Below are positions 10,084 to 26,699 of a DNA stretch of 64,000 bases, one piece after another; position 1 is the stretch's first letter, and each line of letters begins with the position of its first letter. The DNA lies in the NCBI GenBank assembly GCA_028715785.1, contig JAQURC010000001.1:12766-76765 (forward strand), given 5' to 3'. The notes beneath the pieces are model-generated. The model saw only the letters and a program-made list of their open reading frames with translations, made no database searches and was not told the origin of the DNA. This DNA is from Candidatus Omnitrophota bacterium. Lineage in GTDB: Bacteria; Omnitrophota; Gorgyraeia; Gygaellales; Profunditerraquicolaceae. The translations under genes and the position numbers were made by a program.

Positions 10084-10162
10084 TGTCATTGCGAGGAGCG
10101 TAGCGACGAAGCAATCACTAAAAGCGAGATTGCTTCGGGCACTTCGTGACCTCGCAATGACA
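10084..10162. repeat. MITE-like element, TGTCATTGCGAG...CTCGCAATGACA family, copy 1 (79 bp)
   Basis: 12-bp terminal inverted repeats plus inner inverted repeat GAAGCAATC/GATTGCTTC. Intergenic before the KS gene. Confidence 0.7.
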
Positions 10163-10178
10163 CAAGAAGGAATATTAT

Positions 10179-11441
10179 ATGAATAAACGACGAGTTGTGA
10201 TTACCGGCATTGGAGTAATTTCGCCAAACGGCATTGGTAAATATAACGCCTGGGAAGGTTTTTCCAGCGGAAAAAGCGGGGTACGTTTAGTTGACGGCTT
10301 TGACGTCTCGGTTTTTAATACCAAGATTGCCGCCGAAGTCAGGGATTTTGACCCTTTTAAATTAGGGCTGAACCACCAGGAGGCCATGCGTATGGACCGC
10401 TATGTGCAGTTCGGGGTAACTGCCGGCAAAATGGCGGTAGAGGACAGTAAATTAGATTTTTCCAAAGAAGATACCCGGCGCATCGGAGTTTGTTTGGCCA
10501 ATGCCATCTGCGGGACAAAATATATGGAGGAGGAGTTTGCTTTAGTTACCGAGGACGGGAAAAAACCGATTAATCCGGCTTTAGTGCGGCCGGATTTATA
10601 CGACGCGGCGATGTTTAACACTCCTTCGATAGAAATCAGCGCGCGTTTTGGCTTAAAAGGGATTTGCAATACTATTTCTACCGGATGCACTGCCGGCACG
10701 GATTCATTGGGTTTTGGTTTAGAAAGTATCCAGGATGGGGAGCAGGATGTAATGATCTGCGGGGCCGCGGAAGCCCCGCTTACCCCGATCACCTTCGGCG
10801 CTTTTGATGTGGTCAATGTTTTATCCGTGCACAATGACCATCCGCAGAAAGCATCGCGCCCTTTTGATAATCAGCGCGACGGATTTGTGCTCGGAGAAGG
10901 GGCGGGGATTCTAGTCCTTGAAGAATTAAATCACGCTTTAAAACGCAATGCCCCGATTTATTGCGAAGTGTTAGGTTTTGGCACCAGCTGTAATGCCTTT
11001 CACATGACCGACCTGCCTTCCGACGGCCGGGCAATGGAAACCTGTATCAGCTTGGCTTTAAAAGATGCGGAAATAAAACCGGATGAAATTGATTATATTA
11101 ACGCCCATGGCTCAAGCACGCGGATGAATGATATTTTTGAAACCAACGCCTACAAGGCGATTTTCGGCCAGTATGCTTATAAGCTGCCGATCAGTTCGCT
11201 TAAGTCCATGATCGGACATCCCCTGGCTGCGGCAAATGCCATTGAGATGACCATGGTTTCGATGATGTTTGAAAAAAACATCCTGCCTCCGACGATAAAT
11301 CAGGACGAAAAAGACCCGCAGTGCGATTTATATTATATTCCCAATCAGGCAATCCAGAAAAAAGTTAACACGATCATAAAAACCAGCAGCGGTTTTTCAG
11401 GGATACATTCGTCATTGGTTTTAAAAAGGTTTAAGGAGTAA
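10179..11441 (+). CDS. Beta-ketoacyl-ACP synthase (KAS I/II-type, catalytically intact; KS-alpha-like)
   Basis: Active-site Cys in TISTGCTAGTDS. His in AFHMTD and INAHGSST. GHPLAAANAIE. Full Cys-His-His triad. Confidence 0.9.
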   Translation: MNKRRVVITGIGVISPNGIGKYNAWEGFSSGKSGVRLVDGFDVSVFNTKIAAEVRDFDPFKLGLNHQEAMRMDRYVQFGVTAGKMAVEDSKLDFSKEDTRRIGVCLANAICGTKYMEEEFALVTEDGKKPINPALVRPDLYDAAMFNTPSIEISARFGLKGICNTISTGCTAGTDSLGFGLESIQDGEQDVMICGAAEAPLTPITFGAFDVVNVLSVHNDHPQKASRPFDNQRDGFVLGEGAGILVLEELNHALKRNAPIYCEVLGFGTSCNAFHMTDLPSDGRAMETCISLALKDAEIKPDEIDYINAHGSSTRMNDIFETNAYKAIFGQYAYKLPISSLKSMIGHPLAAANAIEMTMVSMMFEKNILPPTINQDEKDPQCDLYYIPNQAIQKKVNTIIKTSSGFSGIHSSLVLKRFKE

Positions 11442-11447
11442 TCCAGA

Positions 11448-11473
11448 GTAGGGGAGGTTTAAACCTCCCCTAC
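11448..11473. repeat. 26-bp palindrome GTAGGGGAGGTTTAAACCTCCCCTAC (REP-like, copy 2) with flanks CCAGAG/TCTGTGGATAA
   Basis: Identical core to 5776 and 14488. Between the two KS genes. Confidence 0.8.
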
Positions 11474-11493
11474 TCTGTGGATAACTTAGAATA

Positions 11494-12735
11494 ATGGAAA
11501 AAATCGCAATTACCGGCATCGGCGTAGTCAGCCCTTCGGGTATCGGAAAGCGGCAGTTCTGGGCAAACCTTAAAAGCGGGCGCTCGTTTATTAAAAAGAT
11601 CACCCGTTTTGACGCCTCATTATACCCGGCGCATATTGCCGGCCAGATCGACGATTTGGAAAAATACAGCCATATTTCCGAAAGGCTCTTAAAAAAAATC
11701 GACGCCTTTTCGCATATGGCGCTGGTGGCTTCGGAGATGGCCCTGCAGGACGCCGGGATCGATATTAAAAATGAGGATCCAAGTCTTGTGGGGATTTTTT
11801 TGGGCAACGCTATCGGCGGCTGGCTGTATGCTGAAACCGAATTAAGGGATTTATATTTAGAAGGCCGGGAGGGCGTTTCGCCTTATATGGCCTCGGCCTG
11901 GTTTCCCGCGGCTCCCCAGGGGCAGGTCTCCATTTATTATGGAATAAAAGGTTTTAGCAAGACCGTGGTCAGCGACCGGGCCAGCTCTTCGATGGCTTTA
12001 GGGTACGCCAGGAAAGTTTTAGCTAAAAACAAACTAAATATGATTTTGGCAGGGGGGATGGAGGCTCCGGTTACCCCGTATGCCTTATTATGTTGTAATA
12101 CTTATGGGGCGCTATCTAAGAATAACAACAATCCCCAGGGAGCGTACCGGCCATTCGATAAACAGCGCAGCGGTTTTGTCATCGGCGAAGGCGCCGGAAT
12201 TGTAGTAATGGAAAGTATCCCGCGCGCCCAAGAAAGAGGAGCAAATATTTTAGGGGTAATTAGCGGATACGGCACCACTTGTGACGGGGCGGATAGGATT
12301 AATTGCGCCAGTGACGGCAAAGAGTTGGCGCGCGCCATTAATATGGCGCTTAGTGACGCAAAGGTAAATCCCGAAGAGATCGGTTATATCAGTTTAGATG
12401 GTTTAGCAGTTGATCTTTGGGATAATTCTGAAATTGCGGCGTTGAAACTGGTTTTTGGAAATAATTTAAAAAATATTCCGCTCAGCTGCCCCAAATCCAT
12501 GTTCGGGAATTTGCTCGGCGCATCCGGGGCATTGGATATGATTATCGCGCTTTTAACTATGGAGCACGGTTTGGTTGCCCCGACTTTAAATTTAGAGGCC
12601 CCGGTTTTGAACAATTTAAATTATGTGGCCGGTGAAGCCAGGGAATATAAAGTAAGCAAGTCTTTGATCATCTCGCGCGGCCGCGGCGGGATTAATTCGG
12701 TTCTAGTAGTTGAGAAAAACGGAGGAAAAAAATGA
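11494..12735 (+). CDS. Ketosynthase-like protein lacking the catalytic triad (chain-length-factor / KS-beta-like partner)
   Basis: Thiolase-fold KS homology throughout. The active-site position reads SDRASS (Cys->Arg). The His positions read GTTCDG and ISLDGLAV (His->Cys/Asp). 4-bp ATGA overlap with the downstream radical SAM gene. Confidence 0.75.
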   Translation: MEKIAITGIGVVSPSGIGKRQFWANLKSGRSFIKKITRFDASLYPAHIAGQIDDLEKYSHISERLLKKIDAFSHMALVASEMALQDAGIDIKNEDPSLVGIFLGNAIGGWLYAETELRDLYLEGREGVSPYMASAWFPAAPQGQVSIYYGIKGFSKTVVSDRASSSMALGYARKVLAKNKLNMILAGGMEAPVTPYALLCCNTYGALSKNNNNPQGAYRPFDKQRSGFVIGEGAGIVVMESIPRAQERGANILGVISGYGTTCDGADRINCASDGKELARAINMALSDAKVNPEEIGYISLDGLAVDLWDNSEIAALKLVFGNNLKNIPLSCPKSMFGNLLGASGALDMIIALLTMEHGLVAPTLNLEAPVLNNLNYVAGEAREYKVSKSLIISRGRGGINSVLVVEKNGGKK

Positions 12736-14192
12736 AAATATTATTCGTTATGCCCAGGGTAGGCGCGTGGGCGACGCACGGCATTCACCGGTCACCGAAC
12801 CAGCTTTACGCGCACTGGGCTGCGTATGCGCGGGAGAGGGGTTACGAAGATGTCGCGGTCATCGACGGAAGGGCCCTGGAAATACCCATGGAGCAGCTGG
12901 TGGAGCAGGTAAAGGCAAAAAACCCGGATGTAGTGGTCATGGGAGAGCAACTGCACGGTTATGGCGGCTACGGCGTATTACGGCATTTTAAAGACGCGGC
13001 CATTGGGATTAAAAAAGCGCTGCCTAAAACAAAAATAATTCTCGGCGGGCTATGGTATTCAGCAATGCCGGTGCCGACATTAGAGGAGAACTCCGCGGTT
13101 GACTTTGTGGTTATGGGTGAAGAGGAATCTTTCGGAGACTTGATCGAAGCAATAGATAAAAATAAGCCGCTTGGCGATGTGGGTGGCGTTACTTCCCGTA
13201 TTGACGGGGCAATTGTTATGGGCCCGCATAAGCCGCTGATGGAAGATTTAGACAAGCTTCCTTTGCCGGCTTATGATTTATTTCCGATGGATAAATACGT
13301 GGGCCATACTTATTGGAAACCGTTTGTGGATATGGTAACCTCAAGGGGCTGCCCTTCAGCCTGTACTTTTTGCTACGAATGGGACCAGTTTGATCCGCGT
13401 TCGCCTTCAGATTTCTTGAAATGGCGGGCTAAATCTCCGGAAAGAGTCATGGAAGAAATGAATCTTCTGCATAGAAAATACGGGGTTAAAGTCGTAGTTA
13501 TTCAGGACGATAATTTTAATGTCGACCCTAAAAGAGTGCAGAAGTTTTGCGAACTTAAAAAAGCATCGAATAATCCAATCAAGTGGGTATCTTTAGGCCG
13601 GGCTGTTGATTGGGTCAATTGCGAATCCATCCTGCCCCTGATGAAAGAAAATGGTTTATTCATGGGCGTTTTTGGCATCGAGGTGACGACCCAGTCAGAG
13701 CTTAAACGGATCGCCAAAGGCATTACTATCGACCAGATTAAAAAAACCATAGAGATCTTACGCAAGAATGATATCGCTATCGTGGCGGATATCATGATGG
13801 GTTTTGATTATGACACCGAGGCTATCGTCAAGCAGAGGTTTGAGTTTACCGATATGGTGGACCCGGATATTTTATGGGTAGGTTATGTTACCCCTGCCCC
13901 GAATTCACCGATGTGGAGGATTGCTCTAAAGAAAAACTGGATTGATCCTAAGAAAGTAGATTTTAGCCAATGGGATTTTCTCCATCCGGTAATCCCTACG
14001 GACCATCTATCCACAGAAGACCTTGGCCGTTTGGGTTCCTGGTGCATGCGTGAATTTTTCTCAAAGCCCGGGCGGATAAACAGGATTATGGAGAGTAATT
14101 TTGATCCGTTAGCCAAGCTCTGTTTCAAGGATGTTATGGATGGAATAGGCAAATGGGAAGCAGTCGCGACAAAAGGCGAAGTGCAGATATAA
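12732..14192 (+). CDS. Class B (cobalamin-binding) radical SAM enzyme
   Basis: N-terminal B12-binding-like domain, then radical SAM SRGCPSACTFCYE (CxxxCxxC). 486 aa. The first ~300 nt are markedly GC-rich. Confidence 0.85.
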   Translation: MKILFVMPRVGAWATHGIHRSPNQLYAHWAAYARERGYEDVAVIDGRALEIPMEQLVEQVKAKNPDVVVMGEQLHGYGGYGVLRHFKDAAIGIKKALPKTKIILGGLWYSAMPVPTLEENSAVDFVVMGEEESFGDLIEAIDKNKPLGDVGGVTSRIDGAIVMGPHKPLMEDLDKLPLPAYDLFPMDKYVGHTYWKPFVDMVTSRGCPSACTFCYEWDQFDPRSPSDFLKWRAKSPERVMEEMNLLHRKYGVKVVVIQDDNFNVDPKRVQKFCELKKASNNPIKWVSLGRAVDWVNCESILPLMKENGLFMGVFGIEVTTQSELKRIAKGITIDQIKKTIEILRKNDIAIVADIMMGFDYDTEAIVKQRFEFTDMVDPDILWVGYVTPAPNSPMWRIALKKNWIDPKKVDFSQWDFLHPVIPTDHLSTEDLGRLGSWCMREFFSKPGRINRIMESNFDPLAKLCFKDVMDGIGKWEAVATKGEVQI

Positions 14193-14197
14193 TGTGC

Positions 14198-14251
14198 CAC
14201 CCCGCGCTTATAGGAATTGCGCGGGTGTGCCCTTGTGGGCTAGGAGAATAA
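14198..14251 (+). promoter_or_regulatory. Conserved two-hairpin 5' leader element (copy 1) ending in AGGAG-N7-ATG of the acp gene
   Basis: CCCCGCGCTTATAGGAATTGCGCGGGTGTGCCCTTGTGGGCTAGGAGAATAAATG. Same module upstream of rpsT, pilT and prfB. Confidence 0.6.
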
Positions 14252-14491
14252 ATGGATATAAAAATAAAAGTTAAAGAAGTGTTGGCGAATTTGCTAAAAG
14301 TTAAAATTGAAGAGTTAAAGGATGAGGTATCTTTGATCAACAGTATCGGCGTGGATTCTACCGAGATGGTGGAGTCGGTAATTGCCCTGGAAAAATCATT
14401 TGGGGTCAAGCTTAGCCCCAAGGAGATCACCAAGAATTCGACCATTAACGATATCGTAAATAATATCCAGCCAAAGTTATCCACAGAGTAG
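14252..14491 (+). CDS. Acyl carrier protein
   Basis: 79 aa. GVDSTEMVE phosphopantetheine-attachment motif. The stop TAG lies inside the REP palindrome. Confidence 0.8.
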   Translation: MDIKIKVKEVLANLLKVKIEELKDEVSLINSIGVDSTEMVESVIALEKSFGVKLSPKEITKNSTINDIVNNIQPKLSTE

Positions 14492-14513
14492 GGGAGGTTT
14501 AAACCTCCCCTAC
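14488..14513. repeat. 26-bp palindrome GTAGGGGAGGTTTAAACCTCCCCTAC (REP-like, copy 3), left flank TTATCCACAGA
   Basis: Identical core. Overlaps the acp stop codon. Confidence 0.8.
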
Positions 14514-14540
14514 TACGGGAATGGGAAAGGAGTTAGAGGG

Positions 14541-15341
14541 GTGAAGATTGTTGACTTGAGCCTGCCCATCGATGAAAAGGCTTTTGAGGTGCACAAGGTT
14601 GAGATCGAGCGGATAACCCATAAAGCCGGCGTCGATAAGTTCAACCGGGTGATTATGGGCAAGACCCTCTTAGGCAGAATAAAATACGCCTTAGGCGCCC
14701 GCATCGTCAGAAAGGGGCAGCTGCCCGATGAAGAATTCCTCTCTTTGGAGATTGTACATGCTCCGGTGCATATAGGAACACACCTGGATTACTCCTTCCA
14801 TTATGGATCAAAATCAGAAAATCGCCCTTCCAAGACCGCGGATGAGATCCCGTTAGAATATTGTTACCAGGACGGGGTTAAACTTGACTTCCGGCATAAA
14901 AGACCCAATGAAGTAATCAAGGCGCCGGATATAGAAAGCGCCCTGAAAAAGATAAATTATCAGCTTAAGCCTTTAGATATTGTGTTATTGCACACCGCCG
15001 CCGATAAGCTCTATGGCGGGCCAAAATATTTCTCGGATTATCCCGGGGTTGATCCTGGGGCCATCGGTTATCTTTTGGATAAAGGAATTAAAATCTTTGG
15101 CACAGACACGATGGGGATTGACCGGCCATACAAATTTATGCTTAAGGAATTCCTGGAAACAGGGGACCCCAAAACTTTTTATCCGGCGCATTTTTATGGA
15201 CGGAAAAGAGAATTTATTCATATAGAACGCCTGGCTAACTTAGAGAAGTTGCCGGATTGTGGATTTAAAATTATCTGTTTTCCTATACGCATCAAAAATA
15301 CCGGGGCCGCCTGGGCCAGAGTGGTGGCTTTTTTAGATTAA
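14541..15341 (+). CDS. Putative cyclase family protein (PF04199-like; kynurenine formamidase/polyketide cyclase fold)
   Basis: HAPVHIGTHLDYSFHYG matches the HxGTHxDxPxH cyclase signature. GTG start after AAGGAG. Confidence 0.7.
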   Translation: MKIVDLSLPIDEKAFEVHKVEIERITHKAGVDKFNRVIMGKTLLGRIKYALGARIVRKGQLPDEEFLSLEIVHAPVHIGTHLDYSFHYGSKSENRPSKTADEIPLEYCYQDGVKLDFRHKRPNEVIKAPDIESALKKINYQLKPLDIVLLHTAADKLYGGPKYFSDYPGVDPGAIGYLLDKGIKIFGTDTMGIDRPYKFMLKEFLETGDPKTFYPAHFYGRKREFIHIERLANLEKLPDCGFKIICFPIRIKNTGAAWARVVAFLD

Positions 15342-15455
15342 TGGCGTAAAACGGGTCCTGTCTTGGGTATTTTCTAGCGCTAAACGCGCGTCGAAAACAC
15401 CCAAGCCACCCGTTTTATCAAAATCTAAAAAAGCAAAATAATAGCGGAGGATGAA

Positions 15456-15896
15456 ATGGGACATACTTGCAATTCAATAATTATTAAGGCGCCTTATGAG
15501 TTAGTTTTTGATATCTCTAATGACATCCCGCGCTGGACGCAGTTGTTCGGCAGCGAATATAAAAAAGCCGAAATCCTAAAAAAAGAAGCCAACAAAATCA
15601 CTTTTCGCCTTACCGACGACGAAGATAAATCCTGGGTTTCCTGGAGATTGTTATACAAGGATAATTTCTTTACCTATTCGGAGCGCTATGAACCGAAATT
15701 CCCCTTTAATTATATGAAAATTATCTGGCTCTATACGCCAAAGCCCGAAGGGATAGAGTTAACTTGGATCCAGCATTTCCAGATGGATGAAAAGGCCAAG
15801 TTTAACGATGAGCAGGTGGAAGGTTTTATCAATAAACATTCCAAAGAGAACTTATTGATTTTTAAGAAGGTTATTGAAGAGGCAGCACTTAAATAA
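15456..15896 (+). CDS. SRPBCC superfamily protein (polyketide cyclase/dehydrase-like, Bet v1 fold)
   Basis: 146 aa. IIKAPYELVFDISNDIPRWTQLF N-terminus and overall pattern typical of Polyketide_cyc2/SRPBCC proteins. Confidence 0.55.
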   Translation: MGHTCNSIIIKAPYELVFDISNDIPRWTQLFGSEYKKAEILKKEANKITFRLTDDEDKSWVSWRLLYKDNFFTYSERYEPKFPFNYMKIIWLYTPKPEGIELTWIQHFQMDEKAKFNDEQVEGFINKHSKENLLIFKKVIEEAALK

Positions 15897-15910
15897 AGGT
15901 TATTCACAAT

Positions 15911-15936
15911 GTAGCGGACGTTTAAACGTCCGCTAC
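15911..15936. repeat. 26-bp palindrome GTAGCGGACGTTTAAACGTCCGCTAC (REP-like, copy 4; covariant arms)
   Basis: Same architecture and TTTAAA centre as 5776. Both arms changed in a complementary way. Confidence 0.75.
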
Positions 15937-15967
15937 GGTCAGGTTAGGATTATACGGGAGGTTAATT

Positions 15968-16744
15968 ATGAGCACAGATTTAAAAGGCAGGATTGCCATT
16001 GTTACCGGTGCCAGCCGCGGTATCGGTAAATCTTTAGCTTCAACCGCAGCAGGTTTGGGCATAAATTTAGTTATCGGCGCCAGAGGACAAGGCCCTTTAG
16101 AAGAAACTGCGGATGAGCTTGCCAGGAAATATAAGGTCCGGGTATTGCCGGTTGCCTGCGACGTCACAAAATTAGAGGACTTGGAAAATTTGGTAAACAA
16201 GGCTAAAGCTGAATTCGGCAAAGTCGATATTTTGATTAATTGCGCCGGAGTTTCCTCGCAATATCCTTTTAACGAGCAGCCGATCGAGGATTTTGAAAAA
16301 TTGGCGCATACGAATTATCTGGGCTATGTGCGGTTAATCCGCCTGGTAATTAACGATATGATCAAACAAAAATACGGGGCGATCATCAATATCGTTTCCG
16401 GCTCGACGCTGGTGGATCCTGTCCCCAGAAATTTCATTGTTTACAGCTCGCTTAAAGTCGGCCTGCGCGCTTTTTCAAAAGGCCTGTTTTGGGAGTTGCG
16501 CGACCACGGGATCAAGGTTACTTCTATTTTACCCGGAGTCACCGATACGGATTTAACCGGCAAGCTTAAGGATATTACCAGCGATACATCGCGCCTTATG
16601 AGCACGCAGGCAATCGAGGATGCGGTGCGTTTTGCTTTGACTGTGCCGGCTAATGTTTGTCCTCTTGAGATCTCGGTAATTAACCAACAAACACCTTGGA
16701 CTGCTCCGGTAATACCGTTTAAACAGCAGCACCCGGGAAAATAA
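15968..16744 (+). CDS. SDR-family oxidoreductase (ketoreductase-like)
   Basis: TGASRGIGKSLA cofactor motif. YSSLKVGLRAF (YxxxK) catalytic motif. Confidence 0.85.
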   Translation: MSTDLKGRIAIVTGASRGIGKSLASTAAGLGINLVIGARGQGPLEETADELARKYKVRVLPVACDVTKLEDLENLVNKAKAEFGKVDILINCAGVSSQYPFNEQPIEDFEKLAHTNYLGYVRLIRLVINDMIKQKYGAIINIVSGSTLVDPVPRNFIVYSSLKVGLRAFSKGLFWELRDHGIKVTSILPGVTDTDLTGKLKDITSDTSRLMSTQAIEDAVRFALTVPANVCPLEISVINQQTPWTAPVIPFKQQHPGK

Positions 16745-16757
16745 GCGGAGAGAAGAA

Positions 16758-17369
16758 ATGAAAAAAATATTTTTTGCGGCAGCAACAGTAGTTTTATTTA
16801 CGGCAGGGGTTTGTTTAGCTGAAGGCGGTAATTTATTAATTGATGATTTTGAAATTTCAGTTACCGGCGGCCCCGAAGGAACGGTTGATTTCGGCGCAGG
16901 TAACGGCTCAAGCGTGGAGGTAACAGCGGCTAGTGATATTAAAAATAGCGGCAATCAGGCATTAAAGGTAGTTTATGACGCATCTCCGGGAGGATATATT
17001 TATGTAGCCCGCGGCTTTGGGCTTGACGCCAGGAACGCTAACTGGCCAATCCAGCCTTCGGATATTAAATGGGAAGAATACAGCGCGATATCATTCTATG
17101 TTTACGGAGCGGATTCTAAAGCGAAAATCGCTTTTGATATAAAAGATAACGGCGGGGAGATCTGGCGTTTTATGACCGAGGATGATTTTAAAGGCTGGAA
17201 GAAAGTAGTTTGCAGTTTTGATAAATTTGTCGTGCGCGACGATTGGCAGCCAAACGACGCGGACAATAACAAGCAGTTGGATTTTCCGGTTAAGATCTTC
17301 CAATTTGAACCGCTTCCCGGATCAAAAGGGACTTTTTATTTTGACACGGTGGAGCTGGTTAGAAAATAA
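16758..17369 (+). CDS. Secreted beta-sandwich protein (CBM11/CIA30-like), function unknown
   Basis: Signal peptide MKKIFFAAATVVLFTAGVCLA. Gly/aromatic-rich beta-strand pattern. Confidence 0.35.
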   Translation: MKKIFFAAATVVLFTAGVCLAEGGNLLIDDFEISVTGGPEGTVDFGAGNGSSVEVTAASDIKNSGNQALKVVYDASPGGYIYVARGFGLDARNANWPIQPSDIKWEEYSAISFYVYGADSKAKIAFDIKDNGGEIWRFMTEDDFKGWKKVVCSFDKFVVRDDWQPNDADNNKQLDFPVKIFQFEPLPGSKGTFYFDTVELVRK

Positions 17370-17382
17370 GAAAGGTGGGGAT

Positions 17383-17796
17383 ATGAATAACCAGGATGTT
17401 AAAAATTTAAAGAAACGTTATTTTATCTGGCTCTATAAAACCGCCAAAGAAACCTTTGATAAATATGAACGCAAGTTTACGCAAGTCGATATCGATAAGG
17501 ATATCCTGGCGGAAATGGAGAAAGAGCTTTTAGGTTCCTACCTTCCCCATGAAAAAGATGCCCTGCAGAGGCAGATCAACGATTTTCAGAAATATATCGA
17601 AAATAAGGAAAAGGCCTGTTCAGAACTCAGGGACCAGCATAGAAAGATCAATCCGGATTTTATTTTCTCGGAAATAAAACTGAATGCGATTGAGAAGGTA
17701 ATCGTCAGGGGGTTGGGCAGGAGGGGGCTGGAAGAGATCAGGTCCCTTTATGAAAAAGAGATGGCCGAACGCATCTTAAAGAGCACGGAGCATTGA
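17383..17796 (+). CDS. Hypothetical coiled-coil protein
   Basis: ATG at 17383 after AAAGGTGGGG. The upstream part of the ORF-track frame overlaps the previous gene. Confidence 0.4.
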   Translation: MNNQDVKNLKKRYFIWLYKTAKETFDKYERKFTQVDIDKDILAEMEKELLGSYLPHEKDALQRQINDFQKYIENKEKACSELRDQHRKINPDFIFSEIKLNAIEKVIVRGLGRRGLEEIRSLYEKEMAERILKSTEH

Positions 17797-18707: not shown

Positions 18708-18933
18708 TATTTTGCTCTTTCAGGATATTGTTCGCGTGCGAAATTTTTCGCCGTGTGCTGCGGTTTACGGCTCGCTCCGGCAGCGCAGTGTTCCTTGCGT
18801 ATTATGAGATTGCCTGCGCTCGCCGTAACTCCTTGCACACATTTGCCGAAAAATTTCTAATGCACGCTCCACAATATCCTTCGAGTAAAATTTAACCGAG
18901 CAAGTCTCGTCACCGCAAAACGGAGTAAGGATT

Positions 18934-19308: not shown

Positions 19309-19634
19309 AAATTCCCGCGGATGGAAAGCTTTTAAGGATTTTTATCGGTGAGGCGGACAAATGGAACGGCCGGCCGCTTTATGAGGAGATTATATTGTTG
19401 GCCAAGAAGGAAAAATTGGCCGGGGCAACGGCAATCAAAGGATTTATGGGGTTTGGCTGTAAAAGCCATATGCATACCGCTAATTTATTGCGGCTTTCCG
19501 AGGACCTGCCGGTGGTTATTGAAATCGTGGATAGCGAAGAGAAAATCAATCAGTTTATTCCGCAGTTGGATAGCATGGTTAAGGAAGGGCTGGTTACTCT
19601 CGAAAAAGCAAACGTAATTATGTACCGGGCGTAA
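19305..19634 (+). CDS. DUF190 family protein (commonly co-transcribed with crcB)
   Basis: 109 aa. LRIFIGEADKWNGRPLYEEII pattern. 4-bp overlap with crcB. Confidence 0.65.
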   Translation: MKIPADGKLLRIFIGEADKWNGRPLYEEIILLAKKEKLAGATAIKGFMGFGCKSHMHTANLLRLSEDLPVVIEIVDSEEKINQFIPQLDSMVKEGLVTLEKANVIMYRA

Positions 19635-19658
19635 TCGTAATTAAGAGGAGAAACTAAA

Positions 19659-20408
19659 ATGCAAATGCAGAAGAATGTTCATCTCACAGGCAAGGATTTA
19701 ACGGAAATGGTCCAGCTTCGGAGGCAGGATGTGGGCAAATACGCCATTGTTCCCGGGCCGCGCGACCGGCTGGATGTTTTAATGAAAAAAATAGAAAACC
19801 CGGTGCGTAATTTTTCGTTTATGGAATACACTATGTATACCGGCACTTATGAGGGGATCAAGGTTACCGGGATTAACGGCGGGAGGTTTTCCACGGACAC
19901 TTCGATTACTACCGAGGTAATGTGCAATGCCGGGATACAAAATATTATCCGCATCGGCACAGCCGGCGCCCTTGATGAAAATATCAAAGTTGGCGATCTG
20001 TTTGTAGTAGATGAGGTTATCCGCGGGGACGGGGTAACCCCTTATTATGTGGATAAAGATTTTAAAACAGTCAGTGACAAGAAGATCTCCGACCTTCTTT
20101 TTGAGATTGCCAAAGGCATGGGGTTAAACGTGCACCGCGGCAAGGCATGGACTACGGATGCGCTTTTACGCGAAACCCGCGAAATTGTCGAAGCCAAGCG
20201 CAAAGAAGGAGCAAGGGCGGTAGATATGGTTTCCTCAACGCTCTTGACTATCTGCCAGACTTATAATATTAAAGCCGGATCAATCCTGGCGGTAAGCGAT
20301 AACGTGATCACCGGAGAGATGGGCTTTATGAATCCACTTTATTATATGGCGGAAAGTAATTTAATAAAGATTGCATTGGAATTAGTTAAAAAATTAGAGG
20401 GCAAATAA
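19659..20408 (+). CDS. DeoD-type purine/MTA nucleoside phosphorylase (PNP_UDP_1 family)
   Basis: TGTYEGIKVTGINGG...IIRIGTAGAL...MVSSTLLTICQTYNIKAGSILAVSDNV parallels DeoD/Udp conserved blocks. Confidence 0.7.
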   Translation: MQMQKNVHLTGKDLTEMVQLRRQDVGKYAIVPGPRDRLDVLMKKIENPVRNFSFMEYTMYTGTYEGIKVTGINGGRFSTDTSITTEVMCNAGIQNIIRIGTAGALDENIKVGDLFVVDEVIRGDGVTPYYVDKDFKTVSDKKISDLLFEIAKGMGLNVHRGKAWTTDALLRETREIVEAKRKEGARAVDMVSSTLLTICQTYNIKAGSILAVSDNVITGEMGFMNPLYYMAESNLIKIALELVKKLEGK

Positions 20409-20411
20409 ACT

Positions 20412-20556
20412 TGTCATTGCGAGCCCCGAAGGGGCGAAGCAATCTCGCTTTTAAGATTGCGCAGCCTGTTCCGAGCGAAGCGAAGGAATCCGGTTGCGAG
20501 GGGCTGCTGGTTTGCTTCGGCTTCGCCTCGCAACCGCTGCGCTCCTCGCAATGACA
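20412..20556. repeat. MITE-like element, TGTCATTGCGAG family, copy 2 (145 bp, composite)
   Basis: Terminal IRs TGTCATTGCGAG / CTCGCAATGACA with an extra internal partial copy (GGTTGCGAGG...CCTCGCAACC). Its translation forms the spurious N-terminal extension of ORF 20457. Confidence 0.7.
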
Positions 20557-20561
20557 CTAAA

Positions 20562-21482
20562 ATGACTATGAAATTTTCTCCCTTATTTTGGCCGATACAA
20601 TTGAAGGGCAATGTAATTTACATCTTGGATGAAACTAAATTGCCGCAAAGGTTGGTTTATCTCAAGGCCAAAAATTACTTAGAGGCATGCCGGGCAATCA
20701 AGCAGATGAAGACCCGCGCCGTAGGCCAGGTGCTTTTGGTAATGTATGCCTTTCTTTTAAGCAAGCGGCAGAATAAAAATTTAGCCAAAGTCGCCAAAGC
20801 CATTAACGCCACCCGGCCGACCCTATCCTTTAAATTTTTAACCGATATGGTTTTAAGCTGGGAAAAAGGCGGCGCGCCGCTTGAAAAAAGTATTTTAGGT
20901 TTCCTAGCGATGCTTAAAACCAAACGTATCGAGCAGGCCAGGGAGGCGGCTAAATTACTTAAAGACGGCGATGTAGTCTTGACACACTGTAATATCAGCG
21001 GCCTGATGCCCTTAATTGCCGAGTTTGCCAAAGAGCAGGGCAAGAAAATAAGTTTTTACGTTACGGAAACCCGTCCGTATTTGCAAGGCTCGCGCCTTAC
21101 TGCCTGGGAAATCCAGCGCGCGGGTTTTGATGTTACGATCATCACCGATAATATGGTGGCATATTTATTATCGTTAGGTAGAGTGACCAAAGTTATCGTC
21201 GGAGCAGACCACTTAACCTTAAACGGGGACATCGCCAATAAGATCGGCACCTATCAGATCGCGGTAGTCGCCAGGTATTTCAAGATTCCTTTTTACGTAA
21301 TCTGTCCGCCGGCATCGAAATTAAAAAGCGGAAAAGAAATTAAAATTGAAATCCGGCCGGATAATGAATTAAAAATTTATCAGGGGCTGCATTTGGCGCC
21401 CAAAGAGGTTAAAGCGTATTATCCGGCCTTTGACGTTACGCCGGCAAAATTAATTACCCGGCATATTCATTTGGGGGTTTAA
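20562..21482 (+). CDS. mtnA: S-methyl-5-thioribose-1-phosphate isomerase (eIF-2B alpha/beta/delta family)
   Basis: YVTETRPYLQGSRLTAWE and GADHLTLNGDIANKIGTYQIAVVA blocks. The ATG at 20562 follows the MITE, whose terminal CAATGAC supplies an upstream in-frame ATG-ACA-CTA-AAA-TGA mini-ORF. Confidence 0.8.
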   Translation: MTMKFSPLFWPIQLKGNVIYILDETKLPQRLVYLKAKNYLEACRAIKQMKTRAVGQVLLVMYAFLLSKRQNKNLAKVAKAINATRPTLSFKFLTDMVLSWEKGGAPLEKSILGFLAMLKTKRIEQAREAAKLLKDGDVVLTHCNISGLMPLIAEFAKEQGKKISFYVTETRPYLQGSRLTAWEIQRAGFDVTIITDNMVAYLLSLGRVTKVIVGADHLTLNGDIANKIGTYQIAVVARYFKIPFYVICPPASKLKSGKEIKIEIRPDNELKIYQGLHLAPKEVKAYYPAFDVTPAKLITRHIHLGV

Positions 21483-22478
21483 ATGCCAGAGCAGGAATTA
21501 AAACTGGAAATTATCCAGGTAGGCAGGCGGCTTTATGCTGCCGGCCTGGCCGTAGCCAAGTCCGGAAATTTAAGCGCACGGCTTGACAGCGAGAATATCC
21601 TGATTACCGCCACCGGAACAGCCTTGGGCCAGTTAAAAGAAAGCGATATCGTTAAGGTAAATTTAGCCACCGGTAAATCCGAGGCAGGGCCGAACCCCAG
21701 CTCCGAACTGCCTTTGCACAGTTTAGTCTATAAAAATTTTCCGGCTAAGGTTGTAATCCATTGCCATCCGCCGCTAATTAACGGATATTTTGCCGTCGCC
21801 AAAACGCTTAAGGCAATGAGTTTTGAAACTAAATTTTATCTCGGAGATATTCCGGTAATCCCCCAGGAAACCCCGACGGTGACGGCTCCTGCGCCGGTTA
21901 TCGCGGCATTAAAAACAAATAATCTGGTTATCTTGAAGAATCACGGGACAGTGGCAATTGGCGATAAGTTTGAAGAGGCCCTAAGTATTACCGAAGCATT
22001 AGAGGAGGCGGTTAAAAGCGCCGCCGTTGGCCGGCTGTTTGATAAAAACATTTTGGATGATTTAGACTTGGCTTTAAAAGATGATTTAAAGCGCAATGAC
22101 CCGGCCTATGCCATGTTTAGCCTGCCGCATATCCAGGCAATCGTGGATTTAGTCAACAAGGATGAGTTTATCGCCCAAAAGGGAAAAGAGCTGGGCCTGA
22201 CGGTGCAGCTGGCGATCAAGCTCGATGACACGAGCGAGGTTTTTAAATTTAGTTTTGAGCAAGGCAAAATCGTAAAACTGGATACTGACAGCCTTGCCCC
22301 TTTTGTTATTTCCGCGCCCCGGCCTGTATGGGAGCAGGTATTTTTAGGCAAACTGGATTCATTTGTGGCAGTTACCCAGGGTAAAATGAAATTAAGCGGC
22401 CAATTAGGCCAGCTTTCCAAATGGTATGTCCCGTTTAACCGCCTTTTTGTTTTATTCCGGGAGGTAAAAATCAAATGA
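21483..22478 (+). CDS. Class II aldolase/adducin-domain protein fused to a C-terminal SCP2-like domain (candidate methylthioribulose-1-P aldolase or dehydratase)
   Basis: VVIHCHPPLINGYFAV class II aldolase metal-binding block. C-terminal ~110 aa with GKMKLSGQLGQLSK is SCP2-like. Confidence 0.65.
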   Translation: MPEQELKLEIIQVGRRLYAAGLAVAKSGNLSARLDSENILITATGTALGQLKESDIVKVNLATGKSEAGPNPSSELPLHSLVYKNFPAKVVIHCHPPLINGYFAVAKTLKAMSFETKFYLGDIPVIPQETPTVTAPAPVIAALKTNNLVILKNHGTVAIGDKFEEALSITEALEEAVKSAAVGRLFDKNILDDLDLALKDDLKRNDPAYAMFSLPHIQAIVDLVNKDEFIAQKGKELGLTVQLAIKLDDTSEVFKFSFEQGKIVKLDTDSLAPFVISAPRPVWEQVFLGKLDSFVAVTQGKMKLSGQLGQLSKWYVPFNRLFVLFREVKIK

Positions 22479-23962
22479 ATTTAAAATGCCCGCTTTATAT
22501 CAACGGACAATTTATCGAAACCGCGGAAAAACAGAATATCATTAATCCCTCTACCGGTAAGGTGATTGCTGAGTCTTCTCATGCTTCGGTAAAAGAGGTG
22601 GAACTGGCTATATCCGCTGCCCGAGAAGCTTTTGATCATGGGCCCTGGCCGCATTTTTCTTTAGCTGAGCGTAAGGAATTTATTTCAAAGATCGCTCAAG
22701 GCATTTTAGCTAATGCTGGAGAACTTGCCCAGTTGGAGACACACAATACCGGCAAGCCGATCAAAGAAACTACTTTTATGGATATCCCCTCTAGCGCGAA
22801 AACTTTTGAGTTTATGGCGGACAATTTTGCCGCCTATCTTCACAATGAAAAAGTCAATATTCCTGAAGATGCCCAGGCCAAGATAGTTTCTGAAGCTATA
22901 GGGGTGGTGGTTTTGATTGTGCCTTGGAACTATCCGCTATTAATCGCCTGTTGGAAGCTGGCTTCCGCTTTGGCTGCCGGTAACACGGTTATTTTAAAGC
23001 CCTCCAGCCTTACTCCGCTTACGGCCTTAGAACTTGCAAAAATTATCCATCAAGCCGGTTTTCCCGCCGGAGTGGTAAATGTAATTAACGCAACCGGAGC
23101 AAAAATCGGGGAACATCTTTGCGCGGATAAACGCGTGGATATGGTCTCCTTTACCGGCAGCAACGAAACAGGCAAACAGGTCCTGCAGTATTCTTCCAAA
23201 AACGTGAAGAAGCTGATTATGGAGCTTGGCGGCAAATCCGCCAATTTGATATTTAATGATGTGGATTTGGATGTGGCGGTGAATAGCTCCCTTACCTCTA
23301 TTTTTTTAAACCAGGGGCAGATGTGCACGGCGATGTCGCGGATTTTCGTGCAAGAGGGTATTTATGATAATTTTCTGGCCAGCTTTATCGAGAAGGCCAA
23401 ACGCATAAAATTGGGTTTAGCCGATAATTTTGAAACGCAGATGGGCCCCTTGATCACCGACGCGCAGCGCAAAAAAGTCATTGCTTATATTGACAAGGCA
23501 AAGGCCGAAGGAGGCCAGGTCTTGTGCGGGGGGAAAATTCCGGAAGACGCGGAACTGAAAAACGGTTATTTCTTTGAGCCCACGGTTTTAGTTGACGTCG
23601 GAGCGCATTTGCATATAGCCAAGGAAGAGGTTTTTGGCCCGGTAGTCTTGGTGCATAAATTTTCCAGTCCGGATGAAGCCGTGGCTTTAGCCAATAGCGT
23701 GGATTTTGGTTTGGCTGCCTGCATTTGGAGCAAAGATTTATCTTTGGCACAGGATTTGGCCAAAAAAATAAATGCCGGCACGGTTTGGATCAATACTTAC
23801 GGCATGTTTTATAACCAGCTTCCTTACGGCGGGTTTAAGCAGAGCGGCTTCGGCAAGGAGCTGGGCCGGCACGGATTTTTGGAATATACCCGTTTAAAAA
23901 ATATAATTATCGACCAGTCCCAGGCAGGCAAGCCCCTGGTTAATTACTGGTACGGATTCTAA
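22475..23962 (+). CDS. NAD(P)-dependent aldehyde dehydrogenase
   Basis: 495 aa. ELGGKSANLIF and catalytic Cys in QGQMCTAMSRIFV. FTGSNETGK. ALDH-family architecture. Confidence 0.85.
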   Translation: MNLKCPLYINGQFIETAEKQNIINPSTGKVIAESSHASVKEVELAISAAREAFDHGPWPHFSLAERKEFISKIAQGILANAGELAQLETHNTGKPIKETTFMDIPSSAKTFEFMADNFAAYLHNEKVNIPEDAQAKIVSEAIGVVVLIVPWNYPLLIACWKLASALAAGNTVILKPSSLTPLTALELAKIIHQAGFPAGVVNVINATGAKIGEHLCADKRVDMVSFTGSNETGKQVLQYSSKNVKKLIMELGGKSANLIFNDVDLDVAVNSSLTSIFLNQGQMCTAMSRIFVQEGIYDNFLASFIEKAKRIKLGLADNFETQMGPLITDAQRKKVIAYIDKAKAEGGQVLCGGKIPEDAELKNGYFFEPTVLVDVGAHLHIAKEEVFGPVVLVHKFSSPDEAVALANSVDFGLAACIWSKDLSLAQDLAKKINAGTVWINTYGMFYNQLPYGGFKQSGFGKELGRHGFLEYTRLKNIIIDQSQAGKPLVNYWYGF

Positions 23963-25506
23963 TGAATGCAGCCAGACTCTTAGAGCAGCGCGCAAAAGAA
24001 TACGGGCAGAAAACGGCGGTTATTTTCCGCCAGGAGGAGATTTCATTTGCCCGGTTAAAGGACAGGGTATTTTCTCTAAGCGCCAGCCTGCTTAAGCTGG
24101 GCGTCAAGCCGCATGATTTAGTCGCAATTTATCTTCCTAACCGGCCGGAATATATTGTCAGCTATCTGGCGATCTGGTCCATCGGCGCCTGCAGCGTGCC
24201 GTTGGATTTTATGCTTACCGAAGATGAAATAACCTCCTGCCTGGCGCACTGCCAGGCAAAAATTTTAATTACCAAACATAAAGCCGGTATCTCATTTGCA
24301 AATTTAAAGGCCAGGCTCCCTTTATTAAAAAATATTATTTTCTGTCAGTCAGAAGATAAAGAATGCTTAAGTTTCGAGAAATTGCTGGAGGAGGGGGCCA
24401 AAGAAAACCCCGGAATAGAAATTAACGAGAAAGATCCCGCCATAATTTTTTATACCTCCGGCACTACCGGTAAGCCCAAAGGCGTCTTGATCAATTATGC
24501 CCAATTGGATGCCCCGCCAAAATCCATGGCCTTTTTTGTCAACTCGGATTTAAGCGCAAAAGATACCGCGCTCTGCGCTTTGCCATTCTCCCACTTAGGC
24601 GGGTTAATTTATATCCAGAATATGCTCTCTTTCGGCTTATCCCTGGTCCTAATGGAGCGTTTTATGCCTTTGGATTTTTTGAAAAACGTGCAGAATTATA
24701 AAGTTAATTTTTTCTGGATTGTCCCTTCGATGTATTACGCGCTCCTGCAGTTAAAAGAGTTTGAGACATTTGATTTATCCAGCCTGCGCTGGATTGTTAC
24801 TTTCGGCGCTTCCAATTCTCCGGATGCTTTACGCAGGTTTCATCAGTTTTGTCCCAAGGCTTATCTTTTAAACGGCTGGGGCCTGACCGAGACCAATGCC
24901 CCCACCGTAGTGCTGCCGATGGGCTCGGAAAATATCGAAAGCGTAGGGCGCCCTGCCCCTTGGATTGAGGTCAAGATATTTTCAGAGAGCGGCCAGGAGT
25001 TGCCCGCAGGCCGGATAGGGGAAGTAGCGGTAAAGAGCTGGGTAGTTACCGACGGATATTTTAAGGATGCGGAATTAACGCAGGAAACTATCCGCGCTGG
25101 CTGGTTTTACACCGGAGACTTAGGCAGGTTTGATGTCCGGGGTTTTCTTTATATCGTCGGCAGGAAAAAAGAAATGATTAAGGTCGGCGGCGAGATTGTT
25201 TTTGAGCCGGAGGTGGAGGCAGCCTTACAAAAATATCCGGATATTGCGGAAGCCGCGGTAATCGGAGTGGCCGATAAGCTAAGAGGAGAGGCGCCCAAGG
25301 CATTTTTGGTGGCTAAAGAAGGCAGGAAAGTTTGCGAAGAAGATTTACGTTATTTCTTGCGCCAGCATTTGGCGCATTTTAAGATTCCGCATTATTTCGA
25401 ATTTTGCGCCTGTCTTCCCAAGAACCGCGTTGGTAAGATTGATAAAGAACGATTACGTTTGTGTCATTGCGAGGGCGAAGCCCGAAGCAATCTTAAACAT
25501 ATATAA
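23962..25506 (+). CDS. AMP-dependent acyl-CoA synthetase/ligase
   Basis: YTSGTTGKPKGV AMP-binding motif. The last ~14 codons and the stop are supplied by the downstream MITE. Confidence 0.8.
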   Translation: MNAARLLEQRAKEYGQKTAVIFRQEEISFARLKDRVFSLSASLLKLGVKPHDLVAIYLPNRPEYIVSYLAIWSIGACSVPLDFMLTEDEITSCLAHCQAKILITKHKAGISFANLKARLPLLKNIIFCQSEDKECLSFEKLLEEGAKENPGIEINEKDPAIIFYTSGTTGKPKGVLINYAQLDAPPKSMAFFVNSDLSAKDTALCALPFSHLGGLIYIQNMLSFGLSLVLMERFMPLDFLKNVQNYKVNFFWIVPSMYYALLQLKEFETFDLSSLRWIVTFGASNSPDALRRFHQFCPKAYLLNGWGLTETNAPTVVLPMGSENIESVGRPAPWIEVKIFSESGQELPAGRIGEVAVKSWVVTDGYFKDAELTQETIRAGWFYTGDLGRFDVRGFLYIVGRKKEMIKVGGEIVFEPEVEAALQKYPDIAEAAVIGVADKLRGEAPKAFLVAKEGRKVCEEDLRYFLRQHLAHFKIPHYFEFCACLPKNRVGKIDKERLRLCHCEGEARSNLKHI

Positions 25507-25558
25507 TTATTTAGGATTGCTTCGTCGTCGCAAAAAAACGCTCCTCCTGGCAATGACA
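25463..25558. repeat. MITE-like element, TGTCATTGCGAG family, copy 3 (96 bp)
   Basis: TGTCATTGCGAGG...GAAGCAATC...GATTGCTTCG...CTCCTGGCAATGACA. Overlaps the 3' end of the acyl-CoA ligase gene. Confidence 0.7.
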
Positions 25559-25576
25559 CTAATTTAGAATACAATC

Positions 25577-26608
25577 ATGCAAGATATTAAGGAATTAGGT
25601 TTAAAAGAGCTGGAAGATAAATTACAATCCTTAGGCCTTCCCAAATACCACGCCAGACAAATCTTCAAATGGATCTATCAAAAAGGAGCCCTTGATTTTA
25701 ACAACATGAGCGATTTACCGGCAGCTTTAAGGAAGAAGTTAGCCGGTGAATTTTATATCCTGGGCCTTGAGCTTGCGGACCTGCAGAGATCTAGCGACGG
25801 GACAACCAAGTTCCTTTTTGAGTTAAAAGATAAAAACCTGATTGAAGCGGTGAATATCCCGGCGGCCCGGCGGGTTACCGGCTGCATCTCCTCGCAGGTA
25901 GGCTGCAAATTTTCCTGCCAATTTTGCGCAAGCAGCCTAAAAGGATTTAAGCGTAATTTAACCGTCGGCGAAATTCTGGATGAAGCGCTTTATTTAAAAA
26001 ACAATACGCAGCAGGCGGAGTTGACGCATATAGTGTTTATGGGCACCGGAGAGCCTTTGGATAATTACGAAGACGTGCTTAAATCCATCCGTATGATTAA
26101 TTCCCCTTATGCCTTTAATATCGGCGCCCGGCGGATTACCATCTCAACCAGCGGGATTATCCCGGGGATAAAGAAGCTGGCAGGCGAGGATTTACAGATC
26201 GAGCTTTCCATATCTTTGCACGCAGCCGATGATAAGACCCGCAGCCAGCTTATGCCGGTAAATAAACGGTATCCCCTGGAAGCGCTAATCAAATGCTGCC
26301 ATGAATATATTGCTAAAACCAACCGCCAGATTACTTTTGAGTATATCCTAATCAAAGGGGTTAATTCTAGTTTGCCTTCAGCGCAAAATCTGGTTAAGCT
26401 TTTAAAAGACCTGAGATTAGCCAAGGTAAACCTGATCCCGGCAAACCCAATTACCGCATTGAAGATCATCCCTCCGTCAAAAGCAGAGATCGGGGCATTT
26501 AAAGAATGTTTGTTTAAAAGCGGGATTAATGTTACATTAAGGCAGGAGCGCGGGCAGGATATCCAGGCGGCATGCGGACAATTGAGGTTAAGGTATGAGA
26601 ATAAATAA
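25577..26608 (+). CDS. rlmN: 23S rRNA/tRNA (adenine-C2)-methyltransferase, radical SAM
   Basis: CISSQVGCKFSCQFCAS radical SAM cluster in RlmN context. C-terminal ...IQAACGQL. Confidence 0.85.
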   Translation: MQDIKELGLKELEDKLQSLGLPKYHARQIFKWIYQKGALDFNNMSDLPAALRKKLAGEFYILGLELADLQRSSDGTTKFLFELKDKNLIEAVNIPAARRVTGCISSQVGCKFSCQFCASSLKGFKRNLTVGEILDEALYLKNNTQQAELTHIVFMGTGEPLDNYEDVLKSIRMINSPYAFNIGARRITISTSGIIPGIKKLAGEDLQIELSISLHAADDKTRSQLMPVNKRYPLEALIKCCHEYIAKTNRQITFEYILIKGVNSSLPSAQNLVKLLKDLRLAKVNLIPANPITALKIIPPSKAEIGAFKECLFKSGINVTLRQERGQDIQAACGQLRLRYENK

Positions 26609-26613
26609 ATTAT

Positions 26614-26699
26614 TGTCATTGCGACTGCGAGGCGAAGCCGAAGCAGGAAGCAATCTCTTTAAAAGGATTGCTTCGTCGCTGCCGCTCCTGGCAATGACG
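26614..26699. repeat. MITE-like element, TGTCATTGCGAG family, copy 4 (86 bp)
   Basis: TGTCATTGCGACTGCGAGG...GAAGCAATC...GATTGCTTCG...CTCCTGGCAATGACG. Its right terminus provides the ATG of the downstream lipoprotein gene. Confidence 0.7.

Follow-up and report, generated by a model that had tools for sequence, protein, structure and literature searches.

We analysed a 64,000-nt stretch of Candidatus Omnitrophota contig JAQURC010000001.1 (assembly GCA_028715785.1; hereafter the window), which carries four copies of a short palindromic repeat, all within positions 10084-26699. The copies lie at co-directional gene pairs, namely a 195-amino-acid open reading frame (ORF) and fabF, MTA phosphorylase (MTAP) and mtnA, an acyl-CoA ligase gene and rlmN, and rlmN and a GDSL lipoprotein gene. 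A preliminary description of the window had read the repeats as same-orientation copies of a miniature inverted-repeat transposable element (MITE) or a structured small RNA, landing systematically at gene boundaries and exapted there for translation signals. Here we argue that the copies are probably doublets of CGTC/TGTC-tagged repetitive extragenic palindromes (REPs), that is, REPIN-like non-autonomous palindromic mobile DNA that would travel by a single-strand enzyme route and whose overlaps with codons are passive. Each copy is built of two inverted units that carry their tetranucleotide tags outward:

10084..10162: copy 1, 79 nt, tags-outward doublet of two inverted units (61.8 bits, E 6e-13), between the 195-amino-acid ORF (stop at 10060) and fabF (ATG at 10179)
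20412..20556: copy 2, 145-nt compound doublet (37.6 bits), between the MTAP stop codon (20406-20408) and mtnA
25462..25558: copy 3, 97-nt doublet in the 3′ end of the acyl-CoA ligase gene (49.4 bits)
26613..26699 (left edge 26613/26614): copy 4, 87 nt or 29 codons (41-42 bits), 5 nt past the rlmN stop, in the signal-peptide coding region of the GDSL lipoprotein gene

A covariance model trained on 52 copies, all from the genomes of other organisms, and then run on the window returned exactly these four places (E 6e-13 to 1e-6; next-best match E > 4). Matches to TGTCATTGCGAG with at most 2 mismatches fell on all eight element ends and on one chance site in the 64 kb, so that the four copies first described are borne out, with the start of copy 3 moved from 25463 to 25462. 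The inner pair GAAGCAATC / GATTGCTTC reported for every copy is exact in copies 1, 3 and 4 and, in copy 2, on the left. Folding of each copy as a long hairpin, also reported before, beat shuffled sequences on both strands (as RNA, z -3.2 to -7.8; as DNA, z -3.8 to -7.3). The common orientation did not hold: because the arm GAGC-N3-GCGAC is on the left in copy 1 (GAGCGTAGCGAC) and on the right in copies 2-4, copy 1 is inverted relative to the others. Copy 2 is present but is not a simple copy, since its right arm holds about 75 nt of nested degenerate units of the same superfamily, delimited by direct reading of the sequence:

20467..20535: nested degenerate units
20467-20491: nested unit a, TGT-TCC-GAG-CGAAGC-GAA-GGAAT-CC
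20492-20535: nested unit b, GGTTGCGAG...GTTTGCTTC-GGCTTCGCC-TCGCAACC

An inverted repeat (I18) joins 20513-20537 of copy 2 to copy 4. Unit heads are also reiterated elsewhere: copy 4 has a doubled TGCGA(C/G) head at 26614-26632, and at another locus (L051, 2729-2849) four direct GTCATTGCGA heads, 17-18 nt apart, precede one complete doublet.

A census of species-representative genomes gave at least 120 loci and, among the matches listed, 138 full elements and 262 units, from which a common plan could be drawn. The unit consists of a YGTC tag, a 5-bp arm ATTGC, GAG, a variable side hairpin, (C)GAA, GCAAT and a CC(A) tail, and the element of two such units inverted, tags outward, around a spacer of 10-30 nt; written out, the consensus is YY-GTCATTGCGAG-[arm]-GAAGCAATCC-[10-30 nt spacer]-GGATTGCTTC-[arm]-CTCGCAATGAC-RR, with family termini YGTCATTGCGAG...CTCGCAATGACR, and the palindrome reaches only 1-2 bp past GTC..GAC. 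Among the listed matches the tag was CGTC in 196 of the 262 units and TGTC in 55, the tail was CCA in 181, and there were 121 tags-outward doublets, no tags-inward ones and 20 singletons, under a search pattern that favoured doublets. The window copies have TGTC tags, except for CGTC at the right end of copy 4, and the tails CTC, CTT or CAC in place of CCA. The side hairpin comes in three forms: a short CGNAGC arm (S), a longer GAGC-N3-4-GCGAC arm (L) and a longer hairpin whose sequence differs from case to case without relationship. The commonest is the GC-GNA-GC mini-hairpin, a known compact DNA form whose layout the CGNAGC insert has; its N is unconstrained (A 46, C 28, T 17, G 8). The longer inserts contain a perfect stem of at least 6 bp in 14 of 57 cases, whereas shuffles gave 1.6 of 57. 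Most doublets are heterodimers (n=170: 51 L/S, 41 S/other, 27 S/S and 2 L/L, where 'other' stands for an arm that is neither S nor L).

Conservation of the fold was followed through the heads and tails of the units. The pair ATTGC/GCAAT was found in 424 of 474 units, and in sister families head and tail co-vary (ATCCT/AGGAT in 12 of 16, ATTCT/AGAAT in 3 of 3; controls 0-1), with ATGGC/GCCAT and ACCCT/AGGGT as further pairs, while the tag and GAG/GAA remain unchanged. In mixed doublets (L311, 4827-4888; L049, 6350-6435) each unit is self-complementary and pairing between the units is broken. These comparisons indicate that the conserved module is the bulged unit by itself and not the long hairpin. 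It is the unit-wise fold of the two-hairpin 'clover' form that was proposed as the one recognized in REPINs (Bertels and Rainey 2011, PMC3116915).

We next turn to whether the repeats move. A scan for RlmN relatives yielded about 35 syntenic metagenome contigs (RlmN 64-81% identical) with the conserved order MTAP-MtnA-aldolase-ALDH-ligase-RlmN-GDSL-orf77-FeoB, and none of them has the element at the site of copy 3 or at that of copy 4. FabF homologues that are 83-95% identical belong to Candidatus Omnitrophica/Omnitrophota metagenome-assembled genomes; the window's own FabF had no exact match in the protein collection searched. At the copy 1 site the gap is 2-3 nt in L312 and L315 and, judged from gene coordinates, in P0003, and the closest relative, L311 (FabF 95%), has an element at 2182-2260 in the opposite orientation. 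Over 369 kb of relatives the covariance model found copies in L311 only. Conversely, a sister-family doublet of L311 (4827-4888) has no counterpart in the window, whose genes overlap at the corresponding site. The empty sites of copy 1 and of the L311 doublet at 4827 are rearranged, with an extra 30-40 nt, so exact insertion boundaries are not definable there. Presence and absence at orthologous sites thus support the view that the elements moved in. Our data show recent entry into the Omnitrophota lineage, at tightly packed co-directional junctions and without target-site duplication.

The last point was assessed by target-site-duplication analysis, which the preliminary description had proposed: for k = 3-6, at every offset and over the 138 copies among those listed, 0-4 duplications were observed against 0-1.8 in shuffled flank pairs, and none was enriched. 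A test for palindromic targets was likewise negative. These results bear on the proposal that the family is a classical MITE, a deletion derivative of an insertion sequence (IS) with a DDE transposase, moved by way of its 12-13 bp terminal inverted repeats. The repeats are indeed miniature, non-coding, palindromic and mobile; their terminal inverted repeats are perfect or nearly so, the window copies end in TG...CA, occupancy differs at orthologous sites, and two doublets in L013 have an IS256/Mutator transposase gene between them. However, besides the lack of duplications of at least 3 bp above shuffled flanks, position -1 is C in 98 of the 138 copies listed, and the outermost base is C in about 75% of units, which means that TG..CA does not characterize the family. 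The strongest conservation, moreover, is internal (GAG/GAA and the head-tail covariation), and a transposase acting on terminal repeats would have no need of it. The L013 IS has unrelated inverted repeats and sits between doublets, as expected of an IS that had targeted a REP cluster and not of a parent, and no autonomous IS with the same terminal inverted repeats was found in about 2.3 Mb of DNA examined. We consider a MITE origin very unlikely.

The copy in L311 matches the reverse complement of copy 1 at 75 of 79 positions and copy 1 in the same orientation at 61 of 83, between flanks that are 94% and 87% identical. Such flips, with unchanged flanks, occurred at three independent orthologous sites: copy 1 versus L311; L232:1106, L241:1835 and L299:1364 versus L288:1820 and L254:4817; and L232:2478 with its orthologues. 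Overall, 13 orthologous-site pairs were flipped, 49 had the same orientation and 6 were ambiguous. The elements can therefore invert in place, which Bertels and Rainey 2011 (PMC3116915) do not mention for REPINs. The flips fit recombination or template switching between the inverted arms, and equally excision followed by re-insertion. Because doublets flip in place, a strand-specific RNA function is disfavoured, and the structured small RNA of the preliminary description finds no further support: Rfam returned nothing at gathering thresholds and only chance-level matches at E up to 10 for the window and four other loci, and a promoter and terminator scan gave nothing specific at any copy.

How the copies relate to the coding sequences was judged against relatives that lack them. 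The features concerned are the following:

20568..21482, + strand: mtnA (IF-2B family), from its conserved start MKFSPLF
20551..20565, + strand: mini-ORF ATG ACA CTA AAA TGA, starting in the right terminus of copy 2, its stop overlapping the ATG at 20562
25462..25506, + strand: repeat-coded ligase tail CHCEGEARSNLKHI and stop, the TAA (25504-25506) lying in the doublet spacer
25565..25567, + strand: TAG, probably the displaced ancestral ligase stop, 9 nt before the rlmN ATG (25577)
26595..27281, + strand: GDSL lipase/lipoprotein gene from its ancestral start, an ATG giving a 14-nt overlap with the rlmN end
26694..26696, + strand: repeat-internal ATG in the right terminus of copy 4, preceded by GCTCCTGGCA

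As had been noted, the ligase ORF (23962-25506, + strand) takes its last 14 codons and its stop from copy 3. The window protein runs to ...GKIDKERLRL and continues with 14 repeat-coded residues, whereas relatives without the element end earlier, at ...GKIDKExLR plus 1-11 variable residues; the native tail is thus a variable, tolerant place. The gap between ligase and rlmN is 0-21 nt in most relatives and 43-50 nt in four contigs, and in one a gene is inserted. Removal of 25462-25558 in silico gives ...LRLLI* followed by aatacaatcATG, as in L132 (TAAaatactatcATG) and L129 (TAGaaactatcATG); on this reconstruction the TAG at 25565..25567 is probably the stop that copy 3 displaced.

At copy 4 the outcome was different. 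The terminal CAATGAC had been taken to provide the start codon of the GDSL lipoprotein. The ATG at 26595, with GAGG 7 nt upstream, is found in about 30 relatives together with the 14-nt rlmN overlap and the upstream GAGGTTAA context, and the relatives' proteins begin MK(R)IN...LSGC. Because this ancestral ATG is kept, and because the ATG at 26694 has no Shine-Dalgarno sequence and would fall in the outer stem, the earlier claim is probably wrong: initiation at the repeat's own ATG appears improbable, and that codon would be at most an alternative start. Copy 4 is in frame and stop-free, so that the N-terminus reads MRINKL[LSLRLRGEAEAGSNLFKRIASSLPLLAMT]TVCSLIIFSGC with 29 repeat-coded amino acids, a segment with a terminal KR followed by a hydrophobic run. 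Without the copy the N-terminus is a textbook lipoprotein signal (MRINKLTVCSLIIFSGC), and the enlarged precursor would probably still resemble a signal peptide.

At copy 2, the relatives' MTAP stop overlaps the MtnA start (TAATG) or lies at most 10 nt away, and all MtnA proteins begin MKFSP. This places the window's mtnA start at 20568, two codons after a further in-frame ATG at 20562, and agrees with the earlier suspicion that the 5′ extension of ORF 20457 is an artefact. The mini-ORF described upstream is real, but it has no counterpart at the MTAP-mtnA junction of the relatives and is probably incidental. That junction has been invaded repeatedly and independently in Omnitrophota relatives, by palindromic repeats of at least three different families; other palindromic families lie there in L136, L137, L153 and L142, a single ATTGCGAG unit in L134 (923-1022), and the relatives' junction also carries GCGGGT...CCCAAG elements similar to interspersed families of the window.

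In a crude count, 50 elements lay between co-directional genes, 20 between convergent genes and 10 between divergent ones. They stood at a median distance of about 30 nt from the preceding stop codon, and the native gene gaps in the invaded operons range from -14 to about 20 nt. The overlaps with a stop codon and a signal peptide arise because the elements were inserted into operons with gaps this narrow. An alternative is that the repeat is a selected cis-acting or small-RNA element, recruited for start and stop codons or for translational coupling. Stable RNA hairpins (z down to -7.8) would suit such a role, as would the position of three of the four copies, which lie at most 5 nt after a stop codon or contain a used stop or ATG. 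In E. coli, moreover, REPs reportedly can stabilize upstream mRNA and damp translation within about 15 nt of the stop, effects attributed to the work of Newbury in 1987 and of Liang, Rudd and Deutscher in 2015. Against this, the GDSL and MtnA starts are the same in relatives without the element, ligase tails vary naturally, neither an Rfam family nor a promoter- or terminator-like signal coincides with the copies, orientation flips between close relatives at three orthologous sites, and the same core stands beside unrelated genes in at least 12 phyla. We therefore regard recruitment for translation as unlikely and the claim of systematic exaptation as unsupported: comparison with orthologues left the GDSL and MtnA starts as they were, and only the ligase stop had been displaced, by copy 3. 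The gene-boundary reading of the preliminary description is one-third right, and the repeats belong to an already described type, CGTC-tagged REP doublets, and not to a system supplying translation signals.

This type was defined in a survey that reported it from five phyla and distinguished families CGTC-1 to CGTC-4 (Di Nocera, De Gregorio and Rocco 2013, BMC Genomics 14:522; PMC3733652). CGTC REPs as described there have a CGTC tag, with TGTC or CCTC as variants, a stem that starts with AT and a CCA tail, form mostly tags-outward doublets that are often heterodimers, with tags-inward ('TT') and tandem ('HT') arrays rare, and lie near the 3′ ends of co-directional or convergent ORFs, occasionally within genes; they include Rickettsia RPE-4 and RPE-6 and Neisseria dRS3, no dedicated transposase was found for them, and bulged variants, by the survey's own account, may have escaped detection. 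Our repeats share the unpaired tag, the stem opening A-T, T-A and the CCA tail, the tags-outward ('HH') doublets, mostly heterodimeric (published spacers 20-100 nt), and the placement, which our context count bears out, near 3′ ends where neighbouring ORFs are co-directional or convergent; some units also fall within ORFs. They also share the absence of a RAYT (REP-associated tyrosine transposase) or other transposase gene flanked by the repeats and the presence of GTAG REPs in the same genome. With REPINs (PMC3116915) the family has in common two inverted REPs around a spacer as the replicative unit, the long hairpin or 'clover' form, the lack of target-site duplication, the intergenic location and presence or absence between strains. 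REPINs differ in having GTAG-type heads, in flanking a single-copy RAYT gene and in having a sequence particular to each lineage and inherited vertically, whereas the window family is associated with no RAYT and its core is almost identical across phyla.

Resemblances to other small repeats are looser. Rickettsia palindromic elements, of which RPE-4 and RPE-6 are CGTC-type according to PMC3733652, also lie in frame in protein genes and are apparently tolerated, as copy 4 seems to be; only one of the four window copies behaves so, and the likeness drawn here is one of behaviour. Correia/NEMIS and MIRU elements are likewise small, with terminal inverted repeats, sit at gene junctions and supply or overlap stop and start codons, but Correia elements have TA target-site duplications and MIRUs are direct repeats rather than palindromic doublets, and neither feature occurs in the window family. 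The succession of outer stem, unpaired or bulged middle, inner stem and variable apex, together with the location between genes, loosely recalls integron attC cassette recombination sites. The termini are YGTCATTGCGAG, however, without an RYYYAAC/GTTRRRY core, the flanks are housekeeping genes in an order conserved in about 35 relatives and not cassettes, and no integrase was seen. Terminator hairpins evolved in place fare no better, as there is no T-tract 3′ of the hairpins and near-identical sequence across phyla excludes an origin in place; we give virtually no credence to either possibility. A literature search by DNA string, with GTCATTGCGAG and related strings, returned chance primer matches only.

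Among the matches listed, the hosts of the core were Alphaproteobacteria (the majority), Gammaproteobacteria, Desulfobacteraceae, Bacteroidota, Ignavibacteriota, Zixibacteria, Chloroflexota, Patescibacteria, Planctomycetota, Spirochaetota, Cyanobacteria (Nostoc), Firmicutes, Binatia and Moduliflexus. Cultured isolates are among the carriers, and the Omnitrophota carriers are the window and L311. Besides Omnitrophota, the core reaches at least 11 more phyla or candidate phyla, compared with the five phyla of the 2013 survey. A phage vehicle was considered and rejected: 110 IMG/VR contigs carry the element, but their recurrent neighbours are gene transfer agent (GTA)-cluster, capsid and tail genes of high-GC chromosomes. 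Many of the 'viral' carriers at loci L201-L310 are GTA-like clusters (GTA_TIM, capsid, tail-tube), probably alphaproteobacterial, and not free phages.

A mobilizing enzyme was sought in the window and around the other loci. The window has one RAYT-like tyrosine transposase gene (33769-34359; Pfam Y1_Tnp E 1e-13; NCBIfam REP_Tyr_transpos 54 bits, below cut-off), bracketed by inverted repeats AAGGGGGACGTCCTCTTAGGGGACACCCT / AGGGTGTCCCTTTTTAGGACGTCCCCCC at 33671-33703 and 34358-34390. Its flanks, GGGGGACGTCC...GGGGACACCC, contain TGTC and CGTC motifs but not ATTGCGAG units. No recurrent gene, RAYT or other, was found near the elements, and genes between neighbouring elements are ordinary, except for the IS256/Mutator IS in L013.

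Several points weigh against the identification as CGTC REP doublets moved through single-stranded DNA. In published CGTC REPs the stem is perfect over 8-9 bp and the loop has 4-5 nt, in contrast to the 5-bp stem, GA-rich internal loop (GAG/(C)GAA) and GNA mini-hairpin or variable side hairpin of the window family. The repeats may or may not belong to one of CGTC-1 to CGTC-4; the comparison was by text, and the string 'ATTGC' does not occur in the survey's text or supplements. Under nearest-neighbour models, which give no credit to GNA loops or tandem G·A pairs, the canonical single unit reaches about -2.7 kcal/mol and folds no better than shuffles (z about 0), and the whole doublet folds far better as a long hairpin, at -22 to -27 kcal/mol when computed as DNA. 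The census seed was an exact doublet pattern and so favoured canonical doublets. REPIN/RAYT biology with its vertical inheritance does not account for a core that is nearly identical from phylum to phylum. No enzyme was found: the only Y1/RAYT-like gene of the window has different flanking repeats, and tblastn with it gave no homologue in 1.9 Mb around 230 element-bearing loci, which leaves the single-strand or HUH route an analogy rather than a finding. Finally, an in-frame, stop-free copy 4 would arise by chance with a probability of about 0.1-0.17 and alone is no proof of translation through the repeat.

If the copies are nevertheless CGTC-type REP doublets, a mechanism can be outlined by analogy with RAYT/REP and IS200/IS605 systems, from the tag-and-hairpin anatomy and the absence of duplications. 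A single-stranded folded intermediate would be recognized unit by unit by a HUH/RAYT-like or other enzyme acting in trans. In the window, insertions have survived only in tolerant places, namely a true gap, a variable C-terminal tail and the n/h-region of a signal peptide; the ligase stop and the 29 extra codons of the lipoprotein are then passive consequences of the landing site. Once inserted, the element would be co-transcribed and form an at most neutral or mildly modulating RNA hairpin in the operon mRNA. More speculatively, the family and its sisters may be substrates of an orphan single-strand DNA enzyme, horizontally spread or widely conserved, that reads the tag and the GA-bulged, GNA-capped hairpin. 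We hold this only as a tentative and somewhat doubtful proposal. If true, it would explain the near-identical core from Bradyrhizobium to Omnitrophota, Patescibacteria, Bacteroidota and Nostoc and the recurrent flips at three orthologous sites, and the family would be part of an orphan system of mobile elements with an enzyme that has gone unfound since 2013.

Relative to the 2013 description, the bulged-unit architecture, the head-tail covariation, the host range of a single core, the flips and the in-frame signal-peptide insertion appear to be new. The sites give clean empty-site evidence for recent movement of a CGTC-type REP doublet in Omnitrophota, and the unit module, the flips and the wide host range are usable constraints on which enzyme moves CGTC REPs. 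For annotation, the copies account for a false 5′ extension of mtnA, the replacement of the native ligase tail and stop by a 14-residue repeat-coded tail, and a 29-residue insert in a lipoprotein signal peptide; repeat-coded peptides of this kind are typical of many spurious 'hypothetical proteins'.

The IS in L013, a Patescibacteria contig, is of the IS256/Mutator family (555-1870), has its own inverted repeats GTAATTAGTACCCTAATGGTTGAT and lies exactly between two CGTC doublets, with ...CTCGCAATGG on one side and CCATTGCGAG... on the other, which suggests an IS that targets REP tags. In the window, a second family of GTAG-tagged perfect palindromes with a GTTTAAAC centre (GTAGGGGAGGTTTAAACCTCCCCTAC and variants) occupies intergenic gaps of the same operons, and these look like classical GTAG REPs:

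5772-5802: GTAG palindrome
11444-11487: GTAG palindrome
14474-14514: GTAG palindrome
15900-15937: GTAG palindrome
60551-60591: GTAG palindrome

The GGGGACGTC motif from the flanks of the RAYT-like gene also brackets one of these palindromes, at 60525-60610. Two interspersed families were seen as well, ACCCCGCGCTTATAAGG..GCGCGGGT..GCCCTTGCGGGCA at 14197-14254, 45314-45370, 50646-50690 and 51837-51887, and GAAACTGTTTCCAGCCCAATCGGGAAATGGGG at 2745-2787, 34791-34825 and 51800-51840. Inside ORF 29301-30056, at 29709-29944, a 21-nt sequence is repeated in tandem at least eight times (family D1; the range corresponds to 12 periods) and would encode a heptad-like repeat of the D-R-x-E-D-V-R type.

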